This document shows, piece by piece, positions 51,416 to 63,055 of a stretch of 64,000 nt of DNA. Under the pieces are notes generated by a model that worked only from the letters and a program-made list of their open reading frames with translations, searched no databases and had not been told where the DNA came from. Position numbers and translations under genes: made by a program. The stretch is from positions 25,857 through 89,856 of the forward strand of contig JAGWBM010000029.1 of the NCBI GenBank assembly GCA_021295895.1. Reading direction: 5' to 3'. This DNA is from Pseudomonadales bacterium (GTDB lineage Bacteria; Pseudomonadota; Gammaproteobacteria; Pseudomonadales; Azotimanducaceae). How positions within the stretch are numbered: the first letter of the stretch is position 1; each line of letters starts with the position of its first letter.

Positions 51416-53092
51416 ATGAAACGCTTGGGCGAGTTGCTCGTCGAACGCAACGCCATCCAGCCTTCCGACCTCGAGAAGGCTCTCTACATCCAGAGGACGG
51501 CTGGCGGGAAACTTGGTGCGCTGCTGGTCCGGACCGGCGCGATCTCCGAGGACGTGCTCCTTGCGACGCTGTCGGACCAGTTGGGGGTCGTCTATCTCCG
51601 TGACGCCGACGACCTGCCCGAGCAACTCGACGTCTACCGCGCCATGGCCGAGTCGCCCATCAAGCTCGATTGGCTCTTGGACCACGCGACCGTGCTTTGG
51701 GAGCGGGATGGCACCATCTGCTGCACCGCCAAGGACACTCGCGACCACGCCTTGGAGGAGACCTTCAACTATTTCTATCCCGGCGAAGAGATCACCTACT
51801 ACCTGGCACCCAACCACCAGATCGACCGGATGCTGGACGGTGTGCGCAAGGAGCGGGCCATCGAGGACCTGTTCTCCGGCGACGATGCCAAGGCGCTGCG
51901 CGAGATGGCGGAAGAGGCGCCGGTCATCGAGTTGGTCAACAACCTCCTGTCGACGGCCGTGGATCTCGGGGCCTCCGACATCCACGTCGAGCCCATGGAG
52001 GAACAGTTCGTCGTCCGCATGCGGGTCGACGGTGTGCTCCACACCCGACTGACCCAGCCCATCGACCGTTTCCCGGCGGTGGCGTCGCGCATCAAGCTGA
52101 TTGCCGGAATCGACATCGCCCAACGCCGTCTCCCCCAGGACGGGGGCATCAGGGAACGCATCTCGGGCAGGAACATGGATATCCGGGTCTCCACCGTTCC
52201 GTGCACCTTCGGCGAGTCCATCGTGCTGCGCATGCTCGACCAGGAACGTGGCGACCAGGCGCTCGAGAACCTCGGCATGGAGCCCGACCACCTGACGATG
52301 TTCCGAGGCTGGCTGCGTGCCAGCAACGGCATCGTGCTCGTCACCGGTCCAACGGGCTCGGGCAAATCCACGACGCTAGCGGCGGCGATCGAAGACATCG
52401 ACGACGGGATCAAGAAGATCATCACCGTCGAGGATCCGGTCGAATACCAGATGCCGAGCATCACCCAGATCCAGGTGCACGCCGAGATCGGCTACACCTT
52501 CGCAACGGCCCTCCGGCACATCCTGCGCCAGGACCCGGACGTCATCATGATCGGCGAGATCCGTGACCTCGAGACCGCCGAAATCGCCATCCGTTCGGCG
52601 CTAACCGGCCACGTCGTCCTGTCGACGGTCCACACCAACGACGCCGTGTCGAGTTTCACCCGCCTGATCGACATGGGCGTGGAACGTTTTCTGGTCGCCT
52701 CGCCGACCAACGGCGTCCAAGCCCAGCGCCTCGTCCGGCGGGTGTGCTCCCATTGCGCCGAACCCATCGACGAACCCGCCTTGGCCATGGAACTCGTACA
52801 CGCGGCAACCGCCCATCAACTTGGGACTCAGTGGGTCCGCGCCGTCGGCTGCGATGCCTGCCAACACACGGGCTATCGCGGGCGAATGGGCATCTACGAA
52901 CTGGTGCCCATCAACACGGAACTCCAGGACATGATCGTCTCAGGCGCGTCGCTGATCGAGTTGAAGCGTTTCGCCCACGATGACCAGGGCCACCGCACCC
53001 TGCTCCAGGACGGCCTGCTCAAGGCATCGCAGGGCCGGACCACGGTAGAAGAGGTCCTGCGTCAGACACTGACGGGCACCGACGAAACGTAG
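51416..53092 (+). CDS. gspE: Type II secretion ATPase GspE/XpsE
   Basis: 558 aa. N-terminal T2SSE_N-like domain, Walker A GPTGSGKST, Asp/His boxes, tetracysteine CSHC...CDAC motif. Confidence 0.92.
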   Translation: MKRLGELLVERNAIQPSDLEKALYIQRTAGGKLGALLVRTGAISEDVLLATLSDQLGVVYLRDADDLPEQLDVYRAMAESPIKLDWLLDHATVLWERDGTICCTAKDTRDHALEETFNYFYPGEEITYYLAPNHQIDRMLDGVRKERAIEDLFSGDDAKALREMAEEAPVIELVNNLLSTAVDLGASDIHVEPMEEQFVVRMRVDGVLHTRLTQPIDRFPAVASRIKLIAGIDIAQRRLPQDGGIRERISGRNMDIRVSTVPCTFGESIVLRMLDQERGDQALENLGMEPDHLTMFRGWLRASNGIVLVTGPTGSGKSTTLAAAIEDIDDGIKKIITVEDPVEYQMPSITQIQVHAEIGYTFATALRHILRQDPDVIMIGEIRDLETAEIAIRSALTGHVVLSTVHTNDAVSSFTRLIDMGVERFLVASPTNGVQAQRLVRRVCSHCAEPIDEPALAMELVHAATAHQLGTQWVRAVGCDACQHTGYRGRMGIYELVPINTELQDMIVSGASLIELKRFAHDDQGHRTLLQDGLLKASQGRTTVEEVLRQTLTGTDET

Positions 53093-53155: not shown

Positions 53156-53200
53156 CTCGGACACACACCGCCTTTGGTGATGTTGCGGTGGTGTCACCCG
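53156..53200. repeat. Solo copy of the CTCGGACACACACC family with its own hairpin
   Basis: CTCGGACACACACCGC-CTTTGGTGATGTT-GCGGTGGTGTCAC in the 382-bp gspE-gspF spacer. Confidence 0.7.
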
Positions 53201-53474: not shown

Positions 53475-54671
53475 ATGCCCCAGTACGACTACGAGATCGT
53501 CAACGGCGAAGGCGAACTGACCAAGGGCCAGATCGAGGCCGCGTCGCCCGCGGAGGTCGCCCGCCGCCTTGGCAGCGACGGCCAAACGCTGGTCGGCGTC
53601 AAGGAATCCCCGGCCACCACGCTTCCGACTTTCCGTCGGCGACTACGCACCGTCGACCTGGTGATCGCCTTCCGCGAACTCGCGACGCTGCTGTCTTCCG
53701 GCGTGTCCTTGGGCGACGCGGTGATCTCACAGAGCAAGGGCAGCTACCACCCGCAGCTGGTTGCCGCGTTCGACGAGATCTCCAAGGAACTGATGCGCGG
53801 CGCCAACTTCCTCGGCGCCGTCCGCGCCGCCAAGCTGCCATTGCCCGACCATCTCTACCACCTTGTCGAGGCCGGCGAGCTGAGCGGTCACCTCGCCGAA
53901 TCGCTCACCCGCGCGGTCGAGCAGATGGAATACGACCGCCACGTGGCCGGCGAGCTACGCAGTGCGCTCACCTACCCCGCGATCCTCGTCGCGTCCTGCG
54001 CGGCTGCGGTGCTCGCGGTGTTCTTCTTCGTCGTCCCGGAGTTCGTGCACCTGCTCGAGGGCGACGCCGAACTGCCGCTCGTCTCGGAACTCGTTCTCGG
54101 TACCGGCGCCTGGTTCAACGACAACCGCTGGCTGGTCGTCGCGATCGTGATCGCCGTGGCGTTCACCGTCGCCGCCCTGTTCAGGAACCCGAACATACGC
54201 CAACGGTTCGTGGACACCCTGGCCCGCCTACCCCTGCTCGGGCAATGGTATTCGGAGACCGACACCGCCAAGTGGGCGATGGTGATGAGCGCCATGCTGA
54301 CGAGCCGGGTCGAACTGGTCGGCGCCTTGGGCCTCGCGGCCCGCGGCGTGCGGGTCTCCCGACGCCGGGCCATGCTCGACCGGGCATTGGCGGACGTGCG
54401 CGGTGGCGAAACCCTGTCGACCGCGCTCGAGAAGCAGGATGCGCTCACCGCCACCGGCTACAACCTCATCCGGGTCGGCGAACAGTCGGGACAACTCCCC
54501 GAGATGATGCGTTCCCTCGCGACCCTCTACGAGGAGAACAGTTCGCGGCGCATGAAGCGCGTCCTCACCCTCATCGAACCCGTGGCGATCCTCGCCATCG
54601 GCGCGTTCATCGGCACCATCTTCATCGGCGTAATACTCGCAATAACGGCGGTCAACAATGTCCCATTCTGA
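53475..54671 (+). CDS. gspF: Type II secretion inner-membrane platform protein GspF/XpsF
   Basis: 398 aa. Duplicated GspF domain architecture with three TM segments. Position after gspE. Confidence 0.9.
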   Translation: MPQYDYEIVNGEGELTKGQIEAASPAEVARRLGSDGQTLVGVKESPATTLPTFRRRLRTVDLVIAFRELATLLSSGVSLGDAVISQSKGSYHPQLVAAFDEISKELMRGANFLGAVRAAKLPLPDHLYHLVEAGELSGHLAESLTRAVEQMEYDRHVAGELRSALTYPAILVASCAAAVLAVFFFVVPEFVHLLEGDAELPLVSELVLGTGAWFNDNRWLVVAIVIAVAFTVAALFRNPNIRQRFVDTLARLPLLGQWYSETDTAKWAMVMSAMLTSRVELVGALGLAARGVRVSRRRAMLDRALADVRGGETLSTALEKQDALTATGYNLIRVGEQSGQLPEMMRSLATLYEENSSRRMKRVLTLIEPVAILAIGAFIGTIFIGVILAITAVNNVPF

Positions 54672-55233
54672 CAACTTCCACGAAACGGGAGGGGCGACCC
54701 TTGCAGTCGCCCGCATCGTAATCCGGCGTTCGCGTCGACACGGGACGGGACAAGCCCGTCCGCTACGTTCGCCCCGCACGAACCGCCTGTTCCGCGCCGT
54801 TCGTTGCGCGCCCCGCGGCTTCTCATTGGTCGAACTCCTCGTCGTACTGGTCATCCTCGGCCTGCTCATCGGCCTGGTCGCCCCGAACTTCATGGGCCGG
54901 GCCGAACAAAGCCGCGGCGATGTCGCCAAGGTGCAAGTGGAATACCTCCACGGCGCACTCAAGACCTACCGCATGGACGTAGGCCGGTTCCCATCCACGG
55001 AACAAGGCCTGGGGGCGCTCATGCGGGCACCGACGGAAGTCGCGGACTACTGGCGAGGCCCCTACCTCGACAAGGAACTGCCCCTCGATCCCTGGCGCAA
55101 TCAGTACCAATACCGCTATCCCGCCGACAACCTACAAGGCCTCGCGCTCTATTCGTTCGGCGCGGATGGCGCCGAAGGCGGGGAGGGCAACGACGCCGAT
55201 ATCGGCTACCTGCCGGAGGCGACGACCGAATAG
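54658..55233 (+). CDS. gspG: Major pseudopilin GspG/XpsG (translation start unresolved)
   Basis: Prepilin site RG|FSLVELLVVLVILGLL at 54817-54822, then canonical GspG (DPWRNQYQYRYP...YSFGADGAEGGEGNDADIGY). The only in-frame ATG/GTG/TTG is ATG 54658, which would give a 53-aa leader running through a REP doublet. Confidence 0.85.
   Translation: MSHSDNFHETGGATLAVARIVIRRSRRHGTGQARPLRSPRTNRLFRAVRCAPRGFSLVELLVVLVILGLLIGLVAPNFMGRAEQSRGDVAKVQVEYLHGALKTYRMDVGRFPSTEQGLGALMRAPTEVADYWRGPYLDKELPLDPWRNQYQYRYPADNLQGLALYSFGADGAEGGEGNDADIGYLPEATTE
54688..54766. repeat. REP doublet (A + 29 nt + B) at the gspF/gspG junction
   Basis: GGAGGGGCGACCCTTGCAGTCGCCC at 54688-54712. GGGACGGGACAAGCCCGTCCGCTAC at 54742-54766. 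Confidence 0.88.
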
Positions 55234-55335
55234 CTGCGTGCGTGCGCGCTGCTCGCGGCTTGTACATATACATATATAAATGGGTACTCTCGATACAAAT
55301 CCGTCGCGAAGACCTCAACGGGGCGTTGGGGCTGC

Positions 55336-55557
55336 GGGACGGGACAAGCCCGTCCCCTACGGTCGTGACCCATGCGTCCGTGTGTGTGCCCGGCGGGGCG
55401 AACGGGTCCGTAGGGGCGACCCTTGCGGTCGCCCGAATCGCGAGGTGGCGGCTGTGGGCACGGGACGGGACAAGCCCGTCCCCTACGGTCGTGACCCAAA
55501 TGCAGGCGTGTGTGCCCGGGTGGACCGGATCCGTGCGGACGCCCCTTGCAGACGCCC
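55336..55557. repeat. Four-REP cluster (B-A-B-A') = tandem duplication of a ~125-bp composite unit
   Basis: B at 55336-55360, A at 55410-55434, B at 55462-55486, degenerate A at 55533-55557. Each B is followed by TCGTGACCCA...GTGTGTGCCCGG. Confidence 0.88.
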
Positions 55558-55981
55558 GTATCGACGGCTGGCATCCGGGATCACCCTGATCGAACTCCTC
55601 GTCGTCCTGGCACTCCTCGGCGTCCTCGCCGCCGTGGCGCTCCCGAATCTCGAGCGACTGACCGCCAGCGTCACCCGGGACACCCAGCGCGAGCACATCC
55701 TCAACCAATTCGCCGAACTCGGCGCCGCCGCCATGCTCGACGGACTCGATTACGTGGTCGTCGGAACCGATGCGCCGGACGGCGAGGCCATCGACGCCCT
55801 CGTCGGCCGGACGCGTTATCCGCTCGACGTCCCGGGCGGCTGGGAAGTCCTCATCGACGAACCGATCCTGGCCCGTGCCAACGGCGTATGCCTCGGCGGC
55901 GCCGTGACCTTGCTCCACGAGGAACTCGAACCGCTCTCCCTCGAACTAACAGCCCCCTTCTGCCGGGTCGATGCGTCCTAA
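55520..55981 (+). CDS. gspH: Minor pseudopilin, GspH/XpsH position (start uncertain)
   Basis: Prepilin site SG|ITLIELLVVLALLGVLAAVALP. The nearest in-frame start is GTG 55520 (19-aa leader), inside the degenerate REP. The frame is open back to ATG 55280. Confidence 0.7.
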   Translation: MDRIRADAPCRRPYRRLASGITLIELLVVLALLGVLAAVALPNLERLTASVTRDTQREHILNQFAELGAAAMLDGLDYVVVGTDAPDGEAIDALVGRTRYPLDVPGGWEVLIDEPILARANGVCLGGAVTLLHEELEPLSLELTAPFCRVDAS

Positions 55982-57322: not shown

Positions 57323-58356
57323 CCCGGCGGGAAGGTTTCATCCTCGCGGCCACCCTCTGGGCGCTGGTCGCGCTCACCGTGGTCGCCGCCTACATCAACG
57401 GCGTGACCCGCACCAACGTGGACAACGCCGACCGCGCCAAGCGGATGCTGCAAAGCGAACTCGATCGCCGCGGCACCGAAGCCACGCTGCTCTACCTGCT
57501 CTCCACCAACCGCATGAACCACCGCAACCTCGTGCTCGAGTCCGAGCAGCACTTCGACATCGACGACCAGATCCTCACAGGCGACGGGGACGCCACCCTG
57601 AGCCTCGCCAGCGACCCGTACCAGGGCCTCGGCGAAGTCGCCTTCTCCCTCCAGGACGAGACGGGCCTGGTGTCCATCAACACCCCCAGCGAACCCCTGA
57701 TGGCCCGCGCCCTCGAAAGCCTGGGTGTCGCCCCCAAGATTGCCGCCGGCCTAATGCCGCGCATCCGTGACTACATCGACAAAGACCACATCCTGACGCT
57801 CGACGGCGCCGAAGACTACGACTACGCCAAGGCCGATCGGCCGCCCCCCGCGAACTGGCATCTCACCACCGCGATGGAGTTGAACCGCGTGCTCGGCGCC
57901 GACGGCATCCTGGACCGCGCCCAATGGCAGCGCCTGCGCGCCATGACCACGCCGCGAACACTCGCCGCCGTCAACTTCAACACCATGCCGCCCGAAGTCG
58001 CCGCCGCGATCCTCGAGACCGACGTCGACAACCTCGCCGAGTTCCTGGCCGCCCGGGAGGAGGAGTCCCTCTCCCGGCTTGATCGCATCCGCGAACTGAC
58101 GGGACAATACGCCGAGGTCGACTCCGGGCTGATCGCCACCGTGCCCTCCGTCTTCCTGAGGATGACCACTTGGTGGCAGCACGGCGGACCACGGACGGTC
58201 GTCGGCATCACCCTCACGCCCTCGACGCCAATCGGGCCACCGGCCGCCGCACCGTGGCGCAAGGAGTACCGCTATTCCGAGCCAGCCGACCACACGGGGA
58301 CGCTTCGCCAGGCGGCGACGCCACTCCTCGGCGGGCAACCCGGGGATCCGACATGA
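57319..58356 (+). CDS. gspK: Minor pseudopilin GspK/XpsK
   Basis: ATGA overlap with the gspJ stop. MTRREGFILAATLWALVALTVVAAY (no Glu+5, as in GspK). 345 aa. SAM-like middle region. Confidence 0.75.
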   Translation: MTRREGFILAATLWALVALTVVAAYINGVTRTNVDNADRAKRMLQSELDRRGTEATLLYLLSTNRMNHRNLVLESEQHFDIDDQILTGDGDATLSLASDPYQGLGEVAFSLQDETGLVSINTPSEPLMARALESLGVAPKIAAGLMPRIRDYIDKDHILTLDGAEDYDYAKADRPPPANWHLTTAMELNRVLGADGILDRAQWQRLRAMTTPRTLAAVNFNTMPPEVAAAILETDVDNLAEFLAAREEESLSRLDRIRELTGQYAEVDSGLIATVPSVFLRMTTWWQHGGPRTVVGITLTPSTPIGPPAAAPWRKEYRYSEPADHTGTLRQAATPLLGGQPGDPT

Positions 58357-58370
58357 CCCGAGGTGATCCC

Positions 58371-58577
58371 GTACGGACGACCCTTGCGGTCGCCCGAGTT
58401 GACGTTGGCGGACCGGCGTACACGGGACGCCACAAGGGCGTCCCCTACGTGAGCCCCGAGGGTGTCGCGGGCCATCGCCCCACGAAACGACACACCCCCG
58501 TAGGGGCGACCCTCGCGGTCGCCCCGATTGACGTTCCCGATTCGGTTCGCGCGAGACGTCCCAAGGGTGTCCCCCAC
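58371..58577. repeat. Four-REP cluster (A-B-A-B) = two tandem A-spacer-B doublets between gspK and gspL
   Basis: A' GTACGGACGACCCTTGCGGTCGCCC at 58371-58395. B' GGGACGCCACAAGGGCGTCCCCTAC at 58424-58448. A at 58500-58524. Degenerate B at about 58553-58577. Each A is followed by (A/G)TTGACGTT. Confidence 0.88.
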
Positions 58578-58615
58578 CGCCATCCCAGCGGCATCCCCGA
58601 GGGCGGACGATCCAG

Positions 58616-59812
58616 ATGAGCGACCCCGCCGAAACCGCGCCGCAGGCGGATCGCGGACCCCGCCCCGCGACCCGCGCGAGACAACTCGCCGAACCCCTGG
58701 CCAACGGGGTACGCCGCTGGCGCCGCCGTCTCGCACGCCGTCCGAACGCCATCCAGACCCGCAACGGCAGCGAGCCGCTGGACTTCAAGTCCGTCCACGC
58801 CCACTGGATCATCGGCCGCGACCTCTGCCTCTACCGTTCGGAAGATTTCGCCGCCATCCCCAGGAACCGACGCGATGCCGCCGTCGCCCTGCGCATCCCC
58901 GTCTGGAGCCCCTTCCAGCGCACCGGCCACCACTGCGTCTGGTCCGGCAGCACCGCCATGGTCTGGTTCTGGGACCAGGAGGCGGTCGACATCCGCCCGA
59001 CGGACCTCGGACTTCCGGAGACCGGGACCACGTCGACCGACCCGGCAAACCGAACCCGGACCCGCGTCCTCCCCGAGTCCGTCTTCCAACCCCGCCACGG
59101 CGCCGGCCTGCACCTGCAGGCCTGCGCCAACGGCTACGACCTCCAGTACTGGCAAGACGACGTCCTGAAGGACGCCCTCTGGCTCCCCCAGCCACCCGAC
59201 ACTGCCCGCGTCCAGGCGTTCCTCAGCCAAGCCCCGATCATGGCCGACGACGCCACGGCGTTGGCCTTCGAAACGCCGGTGACCTCGCCGACCACCTTCG
59301 CCCCAGACCCCTGGTACTCGCCCCTCACGCCGCAAGCCTGGCTGATCGCCAACGAGCGAACCCTGGTGATCGCCGGCCTCGCGATATTCGCCGCCGCCGC
59401 CGCCTTCGAGGAAGCCCGGGTCTGGCGCTACCACTTCGCCCACCAGGCCGCCGCCGCCGAACTCAGGCAGATCGACGAGGAACTCGCCCCCGTGCTGGAC
59501 GCCCGCGACGAACTCGTTGCCCTCAACCGCCGCAACGCCTTCCTGGCCGACATTCTCAACGAGCCCTCGCAGGCCGAACTCATGCTCCGCGTGGACCGAG
59601 TCCTGCCCAGCGACAGCACCGAGTTCCAGGCCTGGCGCTACCAGCAGCGCGACCTCGCCCTGACGCTGTCCGACGACACGGGCATCGACCCCGTCGCCGT
59701 CGTCACCCGCCTGCAGGCGGAACCCATGTTCAAGGATGTCCAGCCGGGCCGAGCTCAGCGCGAGGGCATCGAGATCACCCTCAACGTCGACCCGGCGGCA
59801 AACAACCCGTGA
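58616..59812 (+). CDS. gspL: GspL/XpsL-like bitopic assembly-platform protein (divergent)
   Basis: 398 aa. Cytoplasmic domain of about 260 aa, a single TM (LVIAGLAIFAAAAAF), then a periplasmic domain of about 120 aa. Position K-L-M. The call rests on topology and synteny only. Confidence 0.55.
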   Translation: MSDPAETAPQADRGPRPATRARQLAEPLANGVRRWRRRLARRPNAIQTRNGSEPLDFKSVHAHWIIGRDLCLYRSEDFAAIPRNRRDAAVALRIPVWSPFQRTGHHCVWSGSTAMVWFWDQEAVDIRPTDLGLPETGTTSTDPANRTRTRVLPESVFQPRHGAGLHLQACANGYDLQYWQDDVLKDALWLPQPPDTARVQAFLSQAPIMADDATALAFETPVTSPTTFAPDPWYSPLTPQAWLIANERTLVIAGLAIFAAAAAFEEARVWRYHFAHQAAAAELRQIDEELAPVLDARDELVALNRRNAFLADILNEPSQAELMLRVDRVLPSDSTEFQAWRYQQRDLALTLSDDTGIDPVAVVTRLQAEPMFKDVQPGRAQREGIEITLNVDPAANNP

Positions 59813-60947: not shown

Positions 60948-61026
60948 ACGAGTAAATGTACAAGGAACCGATCCGCCCGTTGCAGGGTCTGACTTGGACG
61001 GGTCGGAAGGAAAGGAGGTGGATTCC

Positions 61027-63055
61027 ATGACCTATACGCCATTACCCCGATGCCGCCCGCCGCCGGCGACCGCCGCGATGCTGGCGTTGTTTGCCCTGGG
61101 CATGGCCGGTTGCTCGAGCCTGAGCGTCGAACCCTTCCCGGAACCGCTGAGTGCCACACCCTTGGCACCGGAGGACGAGGTGCTGCTATCCGGTGGTGAT
61201 GAAGGAGCGGATCCCACCGCACCCACCGTCACCCGCGCCCCGGGTGTGCCAATCGGCCCGACGGTTGCCGAGGGAACCGCCGACGACCTAGGCCAAGACC
61301 TCACCGGCGATCCCATCGAGGAGGTGGCCTTCAACAACGCGCCGCTCCCCATCTTCATCGACGCGCTCTTCAACGAGATCCTCGGACTCTCGTTCGTCGT
61401 CTCGCCTGACCTGCGCGACACGACCGATCTCGTCACGTTGCGCATCGCCGAGCCGATAACCCCGAGCCAGCTATTCACGACGGCCCGGCGGGTCCTGGAG
61501 GAACACTACGGCGTGCGTATCCGTGCCGACGACGATGGCATCCTGACCTTCGAGCCCACCGACGAGATCGCCGCCAGCGGGATTCCCCTGCTCATCAGCG
61601 GCCGGACGCGCCCGGAAGTGCCTGCGACGCACCGTACGGTGTTCCAGATCGTCCACCTCAAGGTGATGTCGCCCAACGATGTCGCCAGCCTCCTGCGGCG
61701 TCTGTTGGGCGGTGTCGAGCTCGAGTTCGAGGAATACCCGCTGCTGGGTGCGGTCCTGCTCAAGGGGAACCTCTCGTCCATCGACCGGGCGGTGGCCATC
61801 ATCGAGGTCCTTGACCAACCCCGACTCAGCGGTCGCCACGGCCTCGTCATCGAACCTGTCTTCCTCGACGTCGCCGAGTTGGCGACCGACTTGAACGAAG
61901 TCCTCCGATCCCAAGGCTATAGCTCGCGGGTGGGCTATTCCGACCTTTCGGGTGCCATCGTGCTACTTCCCCTGAGGAGCGCGAACAAGCTCGTGGTCTT
62001 CGCGGTCGACCCGGCCATCCTCCCCCGCGTGGAGGAGTGGGCCGAGGTCATGGATGCCGAGCGTGAAGCCGCCGTGGAGGACGTTCAAGAACACCCTGGC
62101 GGAGGATCTGATCGAGACCCTGAACCAGGTCTTGAGCATCGAGGGCGCCGAGGAAGGGGAGGACGGTGCGGGGGAACGACGCCAGCGGCGTCGGTCGGGT
62201 ACTCAACTTGTGTACGAGAAGAGCCGGAACGCCGTGCTCTACCGGGGCAACGGCAAGGATTGGGCGCGGATCCGCATTCTGATCGACAAGCTCGACAAAC
62301 CCGTTCCCCAGGTCTTGATCGAAGTGCTGCTCGCCGAAGTCACCCTGAGCGGCCAGGAGGAGTCCGGCATCGAGTACCTCGCCAACCTCGGCATCGGCAG
62401 CCGGGGCATCGACGCCCAACTCACCTCGGGCGGGCTATCCATGGCCCTCGATGGCGCCGGCGAGACGAGGGCCCTGCTGCGCCTCGCCTACGAGGACAAC
62501 CGCGTGGCGATCCGCTCCCTGCCGCGGCTCGTCGTCAAGAGCGGGGAATCCGGCAACATCTTCGCGGGATCGCAGGTGCCGATCCTGTCCCAGCGCGCGG
62601 AGGGCGTCCAGGTGGAGGGGTCCACCAGCATCGTCCAGCAGATCCAGTACCGCAACACCGGGGTTACCTTGGACATCACCCCGATCGTCCAGGCCAATGG
62701 GCTCGTCGATCTCGAGATCAGCCAGACCTTCAGCGAGACCCGGGCCGCCGGCGCCGCGAGCCTGACGCCGACGATTCTCAGCCGCAATCTCGCCACCAGC
62801 ATGACGCTGCGCGACGGTCAATCCGTCATCATGGGCGGCCTGATCTCCGACACCCAGAGCCAAGGCCATTCCGGCGTGCCCGGCCTCGGTCGGATTCCCG
62901 TCGTGGGCCGCCTGTTTCGGGCCGACTCGTTTCAAAAAGACCGTACCGAACTCGTCGTGATGGTGATACCCTATGTCATTGCTGACCATCGTCAGGGCCG
63001 AGAGCTAACCGAGCAGATAAAGTCGCAGCTTGAACTGCACCGACGTTTCCTGTAG
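61027..63055 (+). pseudogene. gspD: T2SS secretin GspD/XpsD with lipoprotein-type signal, interrupted by a +1 frameshift near 62075-62085
   Basis: ATG 61027 lies 7 nt after AAGGAGGTG. LALFALGMAGC lipobox-like signal. N0-N2 domains are in frame 1 (ORF 60994..62985, sense until about 62080). N3 (TFKNTLAEDLIETLNQVL) and the secretin domain (QVLIEVLLAEVTL...GVPGLGRIPVVGRLF) are in frame 2 (ORF 62054..63055). The span is 2029 nt. Confidence 0.8.

Follow-up and report, generated by a model that had tools for sequence, protein, structure and literature searches.

The pseudopilins of ordinary type II secretion systems (T2SSs) have about 6–15 residues before the glycine at position −1 (Gly −1) of the prepilin cleavage site. 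In this work, we examined gspG, the gene for the major T2SS pseudopilin, in a 64,000-nt stretch of DNA from an uncultured gammaproteobacterium (contig JAGWBM010000029.1; the whole stretch is hereafter referred to as the window). The leader proposed here has 53 residues before Gly (54 are removed if Gly −1 is included), and it appears to include residues encoded by repetitive extragenic palindromic (REP) elements. For comparison, the leaders described for type IVa pilins and pseudopilins are shorter than 10 residues (up to 18), and those of type IVb pilins have ~15–30 residues (PMC4471445). The prepilin leader remains cytoplasmic, and prepilin peptidase cleaves it off (PMC10191384). The gspG product resembles these class III signal peptides of T2SS pseudopilins and type IV pilins in having a basic and hydrophilic leader that ends in Gly, followed by F-S-L-V-E (with Glu at +5) and a hydrophobic helix. 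Also, a prepilin peptidase gene (PF01478, Peptidase_A24; 96.6 bits) is located on contig C162 of the same genome. The difference is that the leaders in the clade of the window have 26–93 residues before Gly, are hypervariable, and consist partly of repeat DNA, whereas those of two paralogues in the same genome have 11 and 13 residues.

Palindromic repeats that lie in frame within genes are also known, namely, the Rickettsia palindromic elements (RPEs; reported by Ogata et al., 2000, as cited in Di Nocera et al., 2013) and intragenic GTAG and CGTC REPs (PMC3733652). REPs located at the N-termini of open reading frames (ORFs) were deemed mostly non-coding, probably, since a downstream start is usually available (PMC3733652). 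The repeats found in the gspG leader, designated REP A and REP B, are similar to GTAG-tagged REPs and to doublets resembling bacterial interspersed mosaic elements (BIMEs). They are 22–27 bp long and form GC-rich hairpins with a GTAG tag (CTAC on the plus strand), have ~100 or more copies per genome, and are often paired. They differ in that the copies in the gspG leader are located inside an ORF that is probably translated, not downstream of a stop codon. The likeness to RPEs lies in the mode of existence rather than in the sequence, as both would be short dispersed palindromes that are in frame, translated, and tolerated in a dispensable part of a protein. The gspG repeats belong to an unrelated family, which is a GTAG-tagged REP of an uncultured gammaproteobacterium. 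Furthermore, their harbour would be a peptide that is cut off, such that the mature protein has no repeat-encoded residues. Our literature searches yielded no account of pseudopilin leaders that contain palindromic repeats.

Reading-frame conservation upstream of mature GspG

The gspG gene is probably translated from ATG 54658 in the tail of gspF, which would give a prepilin with a disposable, REP-encoded leader of 53 residues. This ATG is the sole in-frame ATG, GTG, or TTG upstream of the Gly codon in the window, and it is held by the gspF tail AVNNVPF* (aacaATGtcccattcTGA). We searched 40 related genomes and analyzed the gspF ends at 22 loci of the genus that were anchored by tblastn; 17 of these have an in-frame gspG ATG that overlaps the last 11–17 nt of gspF. 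At the genus loci outside the clade of the window, this overlapping ATG corresponds to leaders of 12–31 residues before Gly. For a closer comparison, 12 lineages were read as DNA: the window, four GTDB species (L002–L005), and seven metagenomic contigs (L114–L120). All 12 lineages of this sub-clade have the gspF tail AVNNVP[F/L/I]*, with the ATG located in aac aAT Gtc and in frame with the cleavage site. The distances from this ATG to the Gly codon are 159, 150, 132, 204, 153, 189, 207, 156, 162, 159, 99, and 279 nt, which represent 11 values that are all multiples of three. The lengths have changed independently eight times or more, and without selection the probability that all of them would be multiples of three is below ~2 in 10,000, based on a rough estimate of (1/3)^8. 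Moreover, no stop was found in the 683 leader codons of these lineages, whereas the +1 frame has four stops and the +2 frame has 17, including the 12 gspF stops.

The protein records of the clade form 32 clusters with 63–94% identity. Among these, 26 are called from the gspF-tail ATG and have N-termini of the MSHSD, MFHSE, or MSPSD type. The remaining six (P0007, P0013, P0014, P0024, P0025, and P0030) are called from an internal GTG or ATG; these starts are located in REPs, and the GTG of P0030 is inside the mature helix. At the DNA level, all six can be read without interruption and in frame from the ATG in the gspF tail, and their database N-termini are probably wrong. The matches from genome contigs were mostly distant GspG, with only L031 (contig G002:C217) belonging to the clade. 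An earlier inspection of this DNA, here called the sequence-only reading, had raised the REP-containing 53-residue leader as one of two options. The positions that it gave for the ATG (54658), the CTG (54787), the TTG in the +1 frame (54804), the CCCC run (54811–54814), and the Gly codon (54817–54819) all hold, and the leader from ATG 54658 is strongly supported by the clade-wide conservation of the reading frame. Its suggestion that a REP insertion forced an unusual start was not borne out, as the gspF-tail ATG is the usual gspG start in the genus. Instead, the REPs appear to have landed downstream of this ATG, within a leader-coding stretch that already existed.

The length of the leader varies with its repeat content. 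Leaders without a recognizable REP have ~30–38 residues, such as that of L119 (MSHSDFTLPTSCTPARRRRRPARPRRGPHGPSR), and those of REP-bearing lineages have 44–93 residues, which exceeds the lengths reviewed for prepilin leaders (PMC4471445); the longest is found in L120/P0019, which has several REP copies. For mature GspG, the ratio of nonsynonymous to synonymous substitution rates (dN/dS) is 0.09–0.24 among the five species and 0.10–0.21 among the nearest relatives. For the leader, dN/dS among the nearest relatives is 0.46–1.25, excluding the five codons shared with gspF. These results indicate that mature GspG is under purifying selection, while the leader is hypervariable and almost neutral at the protein level.

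Both REPs are repeated elsewhere in the genome. REP A has six copies in the window (0.01 expected) and ~32–40 core matches in the 3.39-Mb assembly, which has a GC content of 64%. REP B has seven copies in the window (0 expected) and ~91–160 core matches in the assembly; its reverse complement is CCGTAGGGGACGGGCTTGTCCCGTCCC, with the GTAG tag at one end of a short GC-rich palindrome. In the orientation found here, neither REP contains a stop, whichever of the three frames is read (by inspection). Both are located within the frame-conserved ORF and not in the extragenic position expected of GTAG REPs. The frame in which REP B is read varies by species, giving GTGQARPLR in the window and L002, RRDKPVPYG in L003, and DGTSPSPT in L005, and the net frame is always restored. 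Because REP B is read in three frames while the net frame is restored, frame-shifting indels must have been compensated. At the RNA level, the predicted fold of 54640–54830 is overall not more stable than those of shuffled sequences (z = −0.20), and only the local hairpins of REP A and REP B are conspicuous. A scan of 54300–55700 against Rfam gave one match only (sR53), which is below the threshold and attributable to chance.

The product of gspG is a bona fide GspG, i.e., the T2SS major pseudopilin, as judged by profile, motif, and operon position. It scores 157.4 bits against TIGR01710 (cut-off 88.85), with residues 53–184 matched, i.e., from residue 53 on, and 121.2 bits against PF08334, which is above the threshold. 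The prepilin motif is G|FSLVELLVVLVILGLLIGLVA, consisting of G|FxxxE and a hydrophobic helix, and both TIGR02532 and PF07963 exceed their cut-offs. In the operon, a gspE-like ORF (51416–53092) is followed by gspF, gspG, and then H/I/J-like pseudopilin genes, and the same order is found in the related contigs. The gspF product matches TIGR02120 (GspF) over its full length with an E-value of 4e-71, yet below the equivalog cut-off. Furthermore, PF00482 (T2SSF) is present in homologous neighbours. The two paralogues of gspG in this genome (C151:21830-22222 and C24:1957-2340; 42–44% identity) start with an ATG that has a good Shine–Dalgarno (SD) sequence, and their leaders are MNKRRSPRNES-G and MRKRRPSPMHRQT-G, respectively. 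One such second gspG locus is found in most genomes of the genus. The features of the gspF–gspG region are listed in Table 1.

Table 1. Coordinates of features in the gspF–gspG region of the window.
Feature	Position	Strand	Description
gspF	53475..54671	+	ORF, 398 aa; tail ...AVNNVPF* with TGA at 54669-54671
gspG ORF	54658-55233	+	191 aa; ATG 54658; Gly codon GGC 54817-54819 is residue 54
Proposed gspG start, ATG	54658..54660	+	Within the gspF-tail Asn-Val codons (aac aAT Gtc), 11 nt upstream of the gspF stop
Leader-coding stretch (proposed)	54658..54816	+	53 codons; translation MSHSDNFHETGGATLAVARIVIRRSRRHGTGQARPLRSPRTNRLFRAVRCAPR, Arg-rich
REP A, GGGCGACCCTTGCAGTCGCCCG	54692..54713	+	Hairpin-forming dispersed repeat; read as ..GATLAVAR..
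REP B, GGGACGGGACAAGCCCGTCCGCTACGT	54742..54768	+	GTAG-tagged REP, on the opposite strand; read as ..GTGQARPLR..
In-frame CTG	54787..54789	+	10 codons before Gly; would give MFRAVRCAPRG; no SD upstream
TTG	54804..54806	+	+1 frame, opens MRAPRLLIG; not regarded as a gspG start
C4 run	54811..54814	+	Read as a synonymous Pro codon change (CCG to CCC), not an insertion; ungapped alignment with L121, L124, and L122
Gly −1 codon and mature GspG	54817..55233	+	FSLVELLVV..., Glu at +5, stop 55231-55233; TIGR01710, TIGR02532, PF07963

The C run, rival starts, and operon decay

The other option raised in the sequence-only reading was that the C4 run has gained 1 nt, either through an assembly error or through a genuine inactivating or phase-type change; the gene would then originally have started at TTG 54804 (MRARG|FSL...). 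Removal of one C would give a neat leader of four residues, and gspD, which belongs to the same operon, is disrupted in this genome. We compared the run with related metagenomic contigs from independent assemblies, namely, L121 (~95% nucleotide identity over the operon), L124, and L122/L123. All of these align across the run without a gap and at equal length, with gcgCCGCgcGGC or aagCCCTgcGGC compared with gcgCCCCgcGGC in the window. The codons are cgt TGC GCG CCC CGC GGC in the window, cgt TGC GCG CCG CGC GGC in L121 and L124, and cgt TGC AAG CCC TGC GGC in L122. Because these relatives have the same length, align without gaps, and lack the homopolymer, the C4 run is best explained by a synonymous change from CCG to CCC in the gspG frame. 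Exactly as in the window, the TTG (within CGT TGC) does not lie in the gspG frame in L121, L122, and L124, even though mature GspG is under purifying selection in these relatives, and it is absent from this position in the sister species L002–L005. In addition, the TTG has no SD upstream, dropping one C would throw the clade-wide ATG out of frame, and the lesion in gspD is a 17-nt deletion rather than a homopolymer slip. Within the leader, the nearest relatives differ in length only by indels of 6 nt and 18 nt, both in frame. As far as comparison with relatives reaches, the frameshift or assembly-error explanation is refuted, and we consider it extremely improbable. In the alignment with the gspG 5′ regions of close relatives, the reading frame from the ATG was conserved across the leader and the 1-nt homopolymer insertion did not hold. 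Programmed frameshifting at the C run was a further candidate that we dropped; the zero frame is continuous, and nothing needs a shift.

Several points weigh against translation from the gspF-tail ATG. GC-rich DNA has few stop codons, and an open frame alone is weak evidence in such DNA; it is the multiple-of-three result that carries weight. The SD-like GGCGG located 6 nt upstream of ATG 54658 is weak. The leader ends in Gly, yet the 53 residues ahead of this Gly exceed the described range of class III signal peptides, which is <10 to ~30 residues (PMC4471445). Also, the three nearest relatives (L121, L122/L123, and L124) have GTG in place of CTG 54787, and the T2SS machine may be out of use in the genome of the window due to the lesion in gspD.

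These last two points bear on different explanations. The GTG of the relatives would fit a functional GspG that starts at the near-cognate CTG 54787, located 10 residues before Gly −1 (MFRAVRCAPR-G), with the long ORF being incidental or with both products being made. Such a leader would be of textbook length and charge. The codon in the window itself is CTG, which is a very poor bacterial initiator, and no SD-like sequence is found upstream of it. Moreover, this position is not kept as a start in L002–L005 or L114–L120, and initiation here would not account for the retention, across many indels, of the gspF-tail ATG frame in 12 of 12 lineages. We regard a CTG start as unlikely. The gspD lesion would fit the view that gspG is a decaying gene without a working start, in a T2SS operon that is being lost after repeat invasion. 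In this genome only, gspD is split (window 62040–62110; pieces 60994–62985 and 62054–63055) by a 17-nt deletion relative to G024, which shifts the frame and removes GWFHYE after ...SVED, with no homopolymer involved. REPs are also present at the junction of gspG and gspH. Such decay is at odds with the intact gspG ORF and with dN/dS values for mature gspG of 0.09 in comparison with the sister G012 and 0.14 in comparison with L121. The same architecture is also found in species with an intact gspD (G024, G002, and G006; the gene is likewise intact in the assembled part of G012). Decay of gspG is thus very unlikely, and translation from the gspF-tail ATG is the explanation that we prefer.

Proposed origin and fate of the leader

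We infer that translation is initiated at ATG 54658 and that prepilin peptidase processes so long a leader. In the proposed mechanism, ribosomes that finish gspF, or that bind the weak GGCGG, would start at this ATG, such that gspF and gspG would be translationally coupled. Translation would then continue across both REPs, and the resulting prepilin would carry a long N-terminal extension rich in Arg. According to the positive-inside rule and the known topology of prepilins, this extension would be cytoplasmic, and prepilin peptidase would cut after Gly −1. Within the sub-clade, the stretch between the ATG and the cleavage site has probably been lengthened by insertions, including those of the genome's own REPs, which in the window are REP A and REP B. 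Because only a cut-off cytoplasmic leader would be encoded there, the sequence of this stretch would be nearly free to vary, and insertions would be harmless if they keep the frame and add no stop, since the leader is discarded. Selection would then keep only the reading frame and the stop-free state.

The arrangement is similar to that of translationally coupled overlapping genes of the ATGA or ATGnnnnTGA type, given the position of the gspG ATG 11 nt before the gspF stop and the overlap at most genus loci (17 of 22). The difference is that 99–279 nt of nearly unconstrained coding sequence are located between the gspG ATG and the functional part of the gene. Regarding the view that REPs at ORF N-termini are mostly non-coding (PMC3733652), no canonical start besides the gspF-tail ATG exists in the window, L003, or L005, including downstream of the repeats, and the conservation of the frame argues for translation. 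The long-leader GspG is supported as a variant of class III signal peptides and of in-frame palindromic inserts. A bolder extension, which we consider rather unlikely, is that the GspG leader is a preferred REP harbour policed by selection across the clade and that these leaders, with up to 93 residues, are the longest and most variable class III leaders known. In this extension, the hairpins would also tune the level of GspG relative to GspF through ribosome slowing or mRNA stability.

These results settle an annotation question. For this clade, gene callers and the Prokaryotic Genome Annotation Pipeline (PGAP) assign the gspG start inconsistently, i.e., to the ATG in the gspF tail, to an internal GTG or ATG within a REP, or even to a codon of the mature helix. 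If the long leaders are made and processed, the range of prepilin peptidases and of targeting by the signal recognition particle (SRP) and Sec would extend well past the 6–30 residues used to tune programs for finding pilins. Under the same condition, gspG would also provide a clean natural example of selfish palindromes that persist in genes by way of a discarded peptide, with selection policing only the frame, and it would no longer be safe to treat REPs located at ORF 5′ ends as non-coding.

Other features of the operon

Directly after the gspG stop, an AT-rich patch (cttgtacatatacatatataaATGg) is located at 55250–55285 in DNA that otherwise has a GC content of 65–70%. Patches resembling tatatata also follow gspG in L002, L004, and L005. 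The patch in the window could be an internal promoter or a regulatory site ahead of gspH. In gspH, no stop interrupts the frame between ATG 55280 and G|ITLIELLVV (Gly 55577; region 55280–55580), and REP copies lie within this interval. Its nearest canonical in-frame start is GTG 55520, which is located in a degenerate REP and 19 residues before Gly. The leader of gspH may thus be another that includes repeat DNA.

Further downstream, the spacer between gspK and gspL (58353–58619) is entered by an ORF at 58170–58619, and the ATG of gspL is at 58616. The corresponding spacer is ~1.2 kb in G012, compared with ~0.26 kb in the window. In L121, the homology to the window begins only at window position 53199. 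This contig has an IS110-family transposase gene (L121:1-1129; PF01548/PF02371) on the opposite strand, ~0.7 kb upstream of gspF and at the position that gspE occupies in the window. The T2SS of the L121 lineage may have been disrupted.

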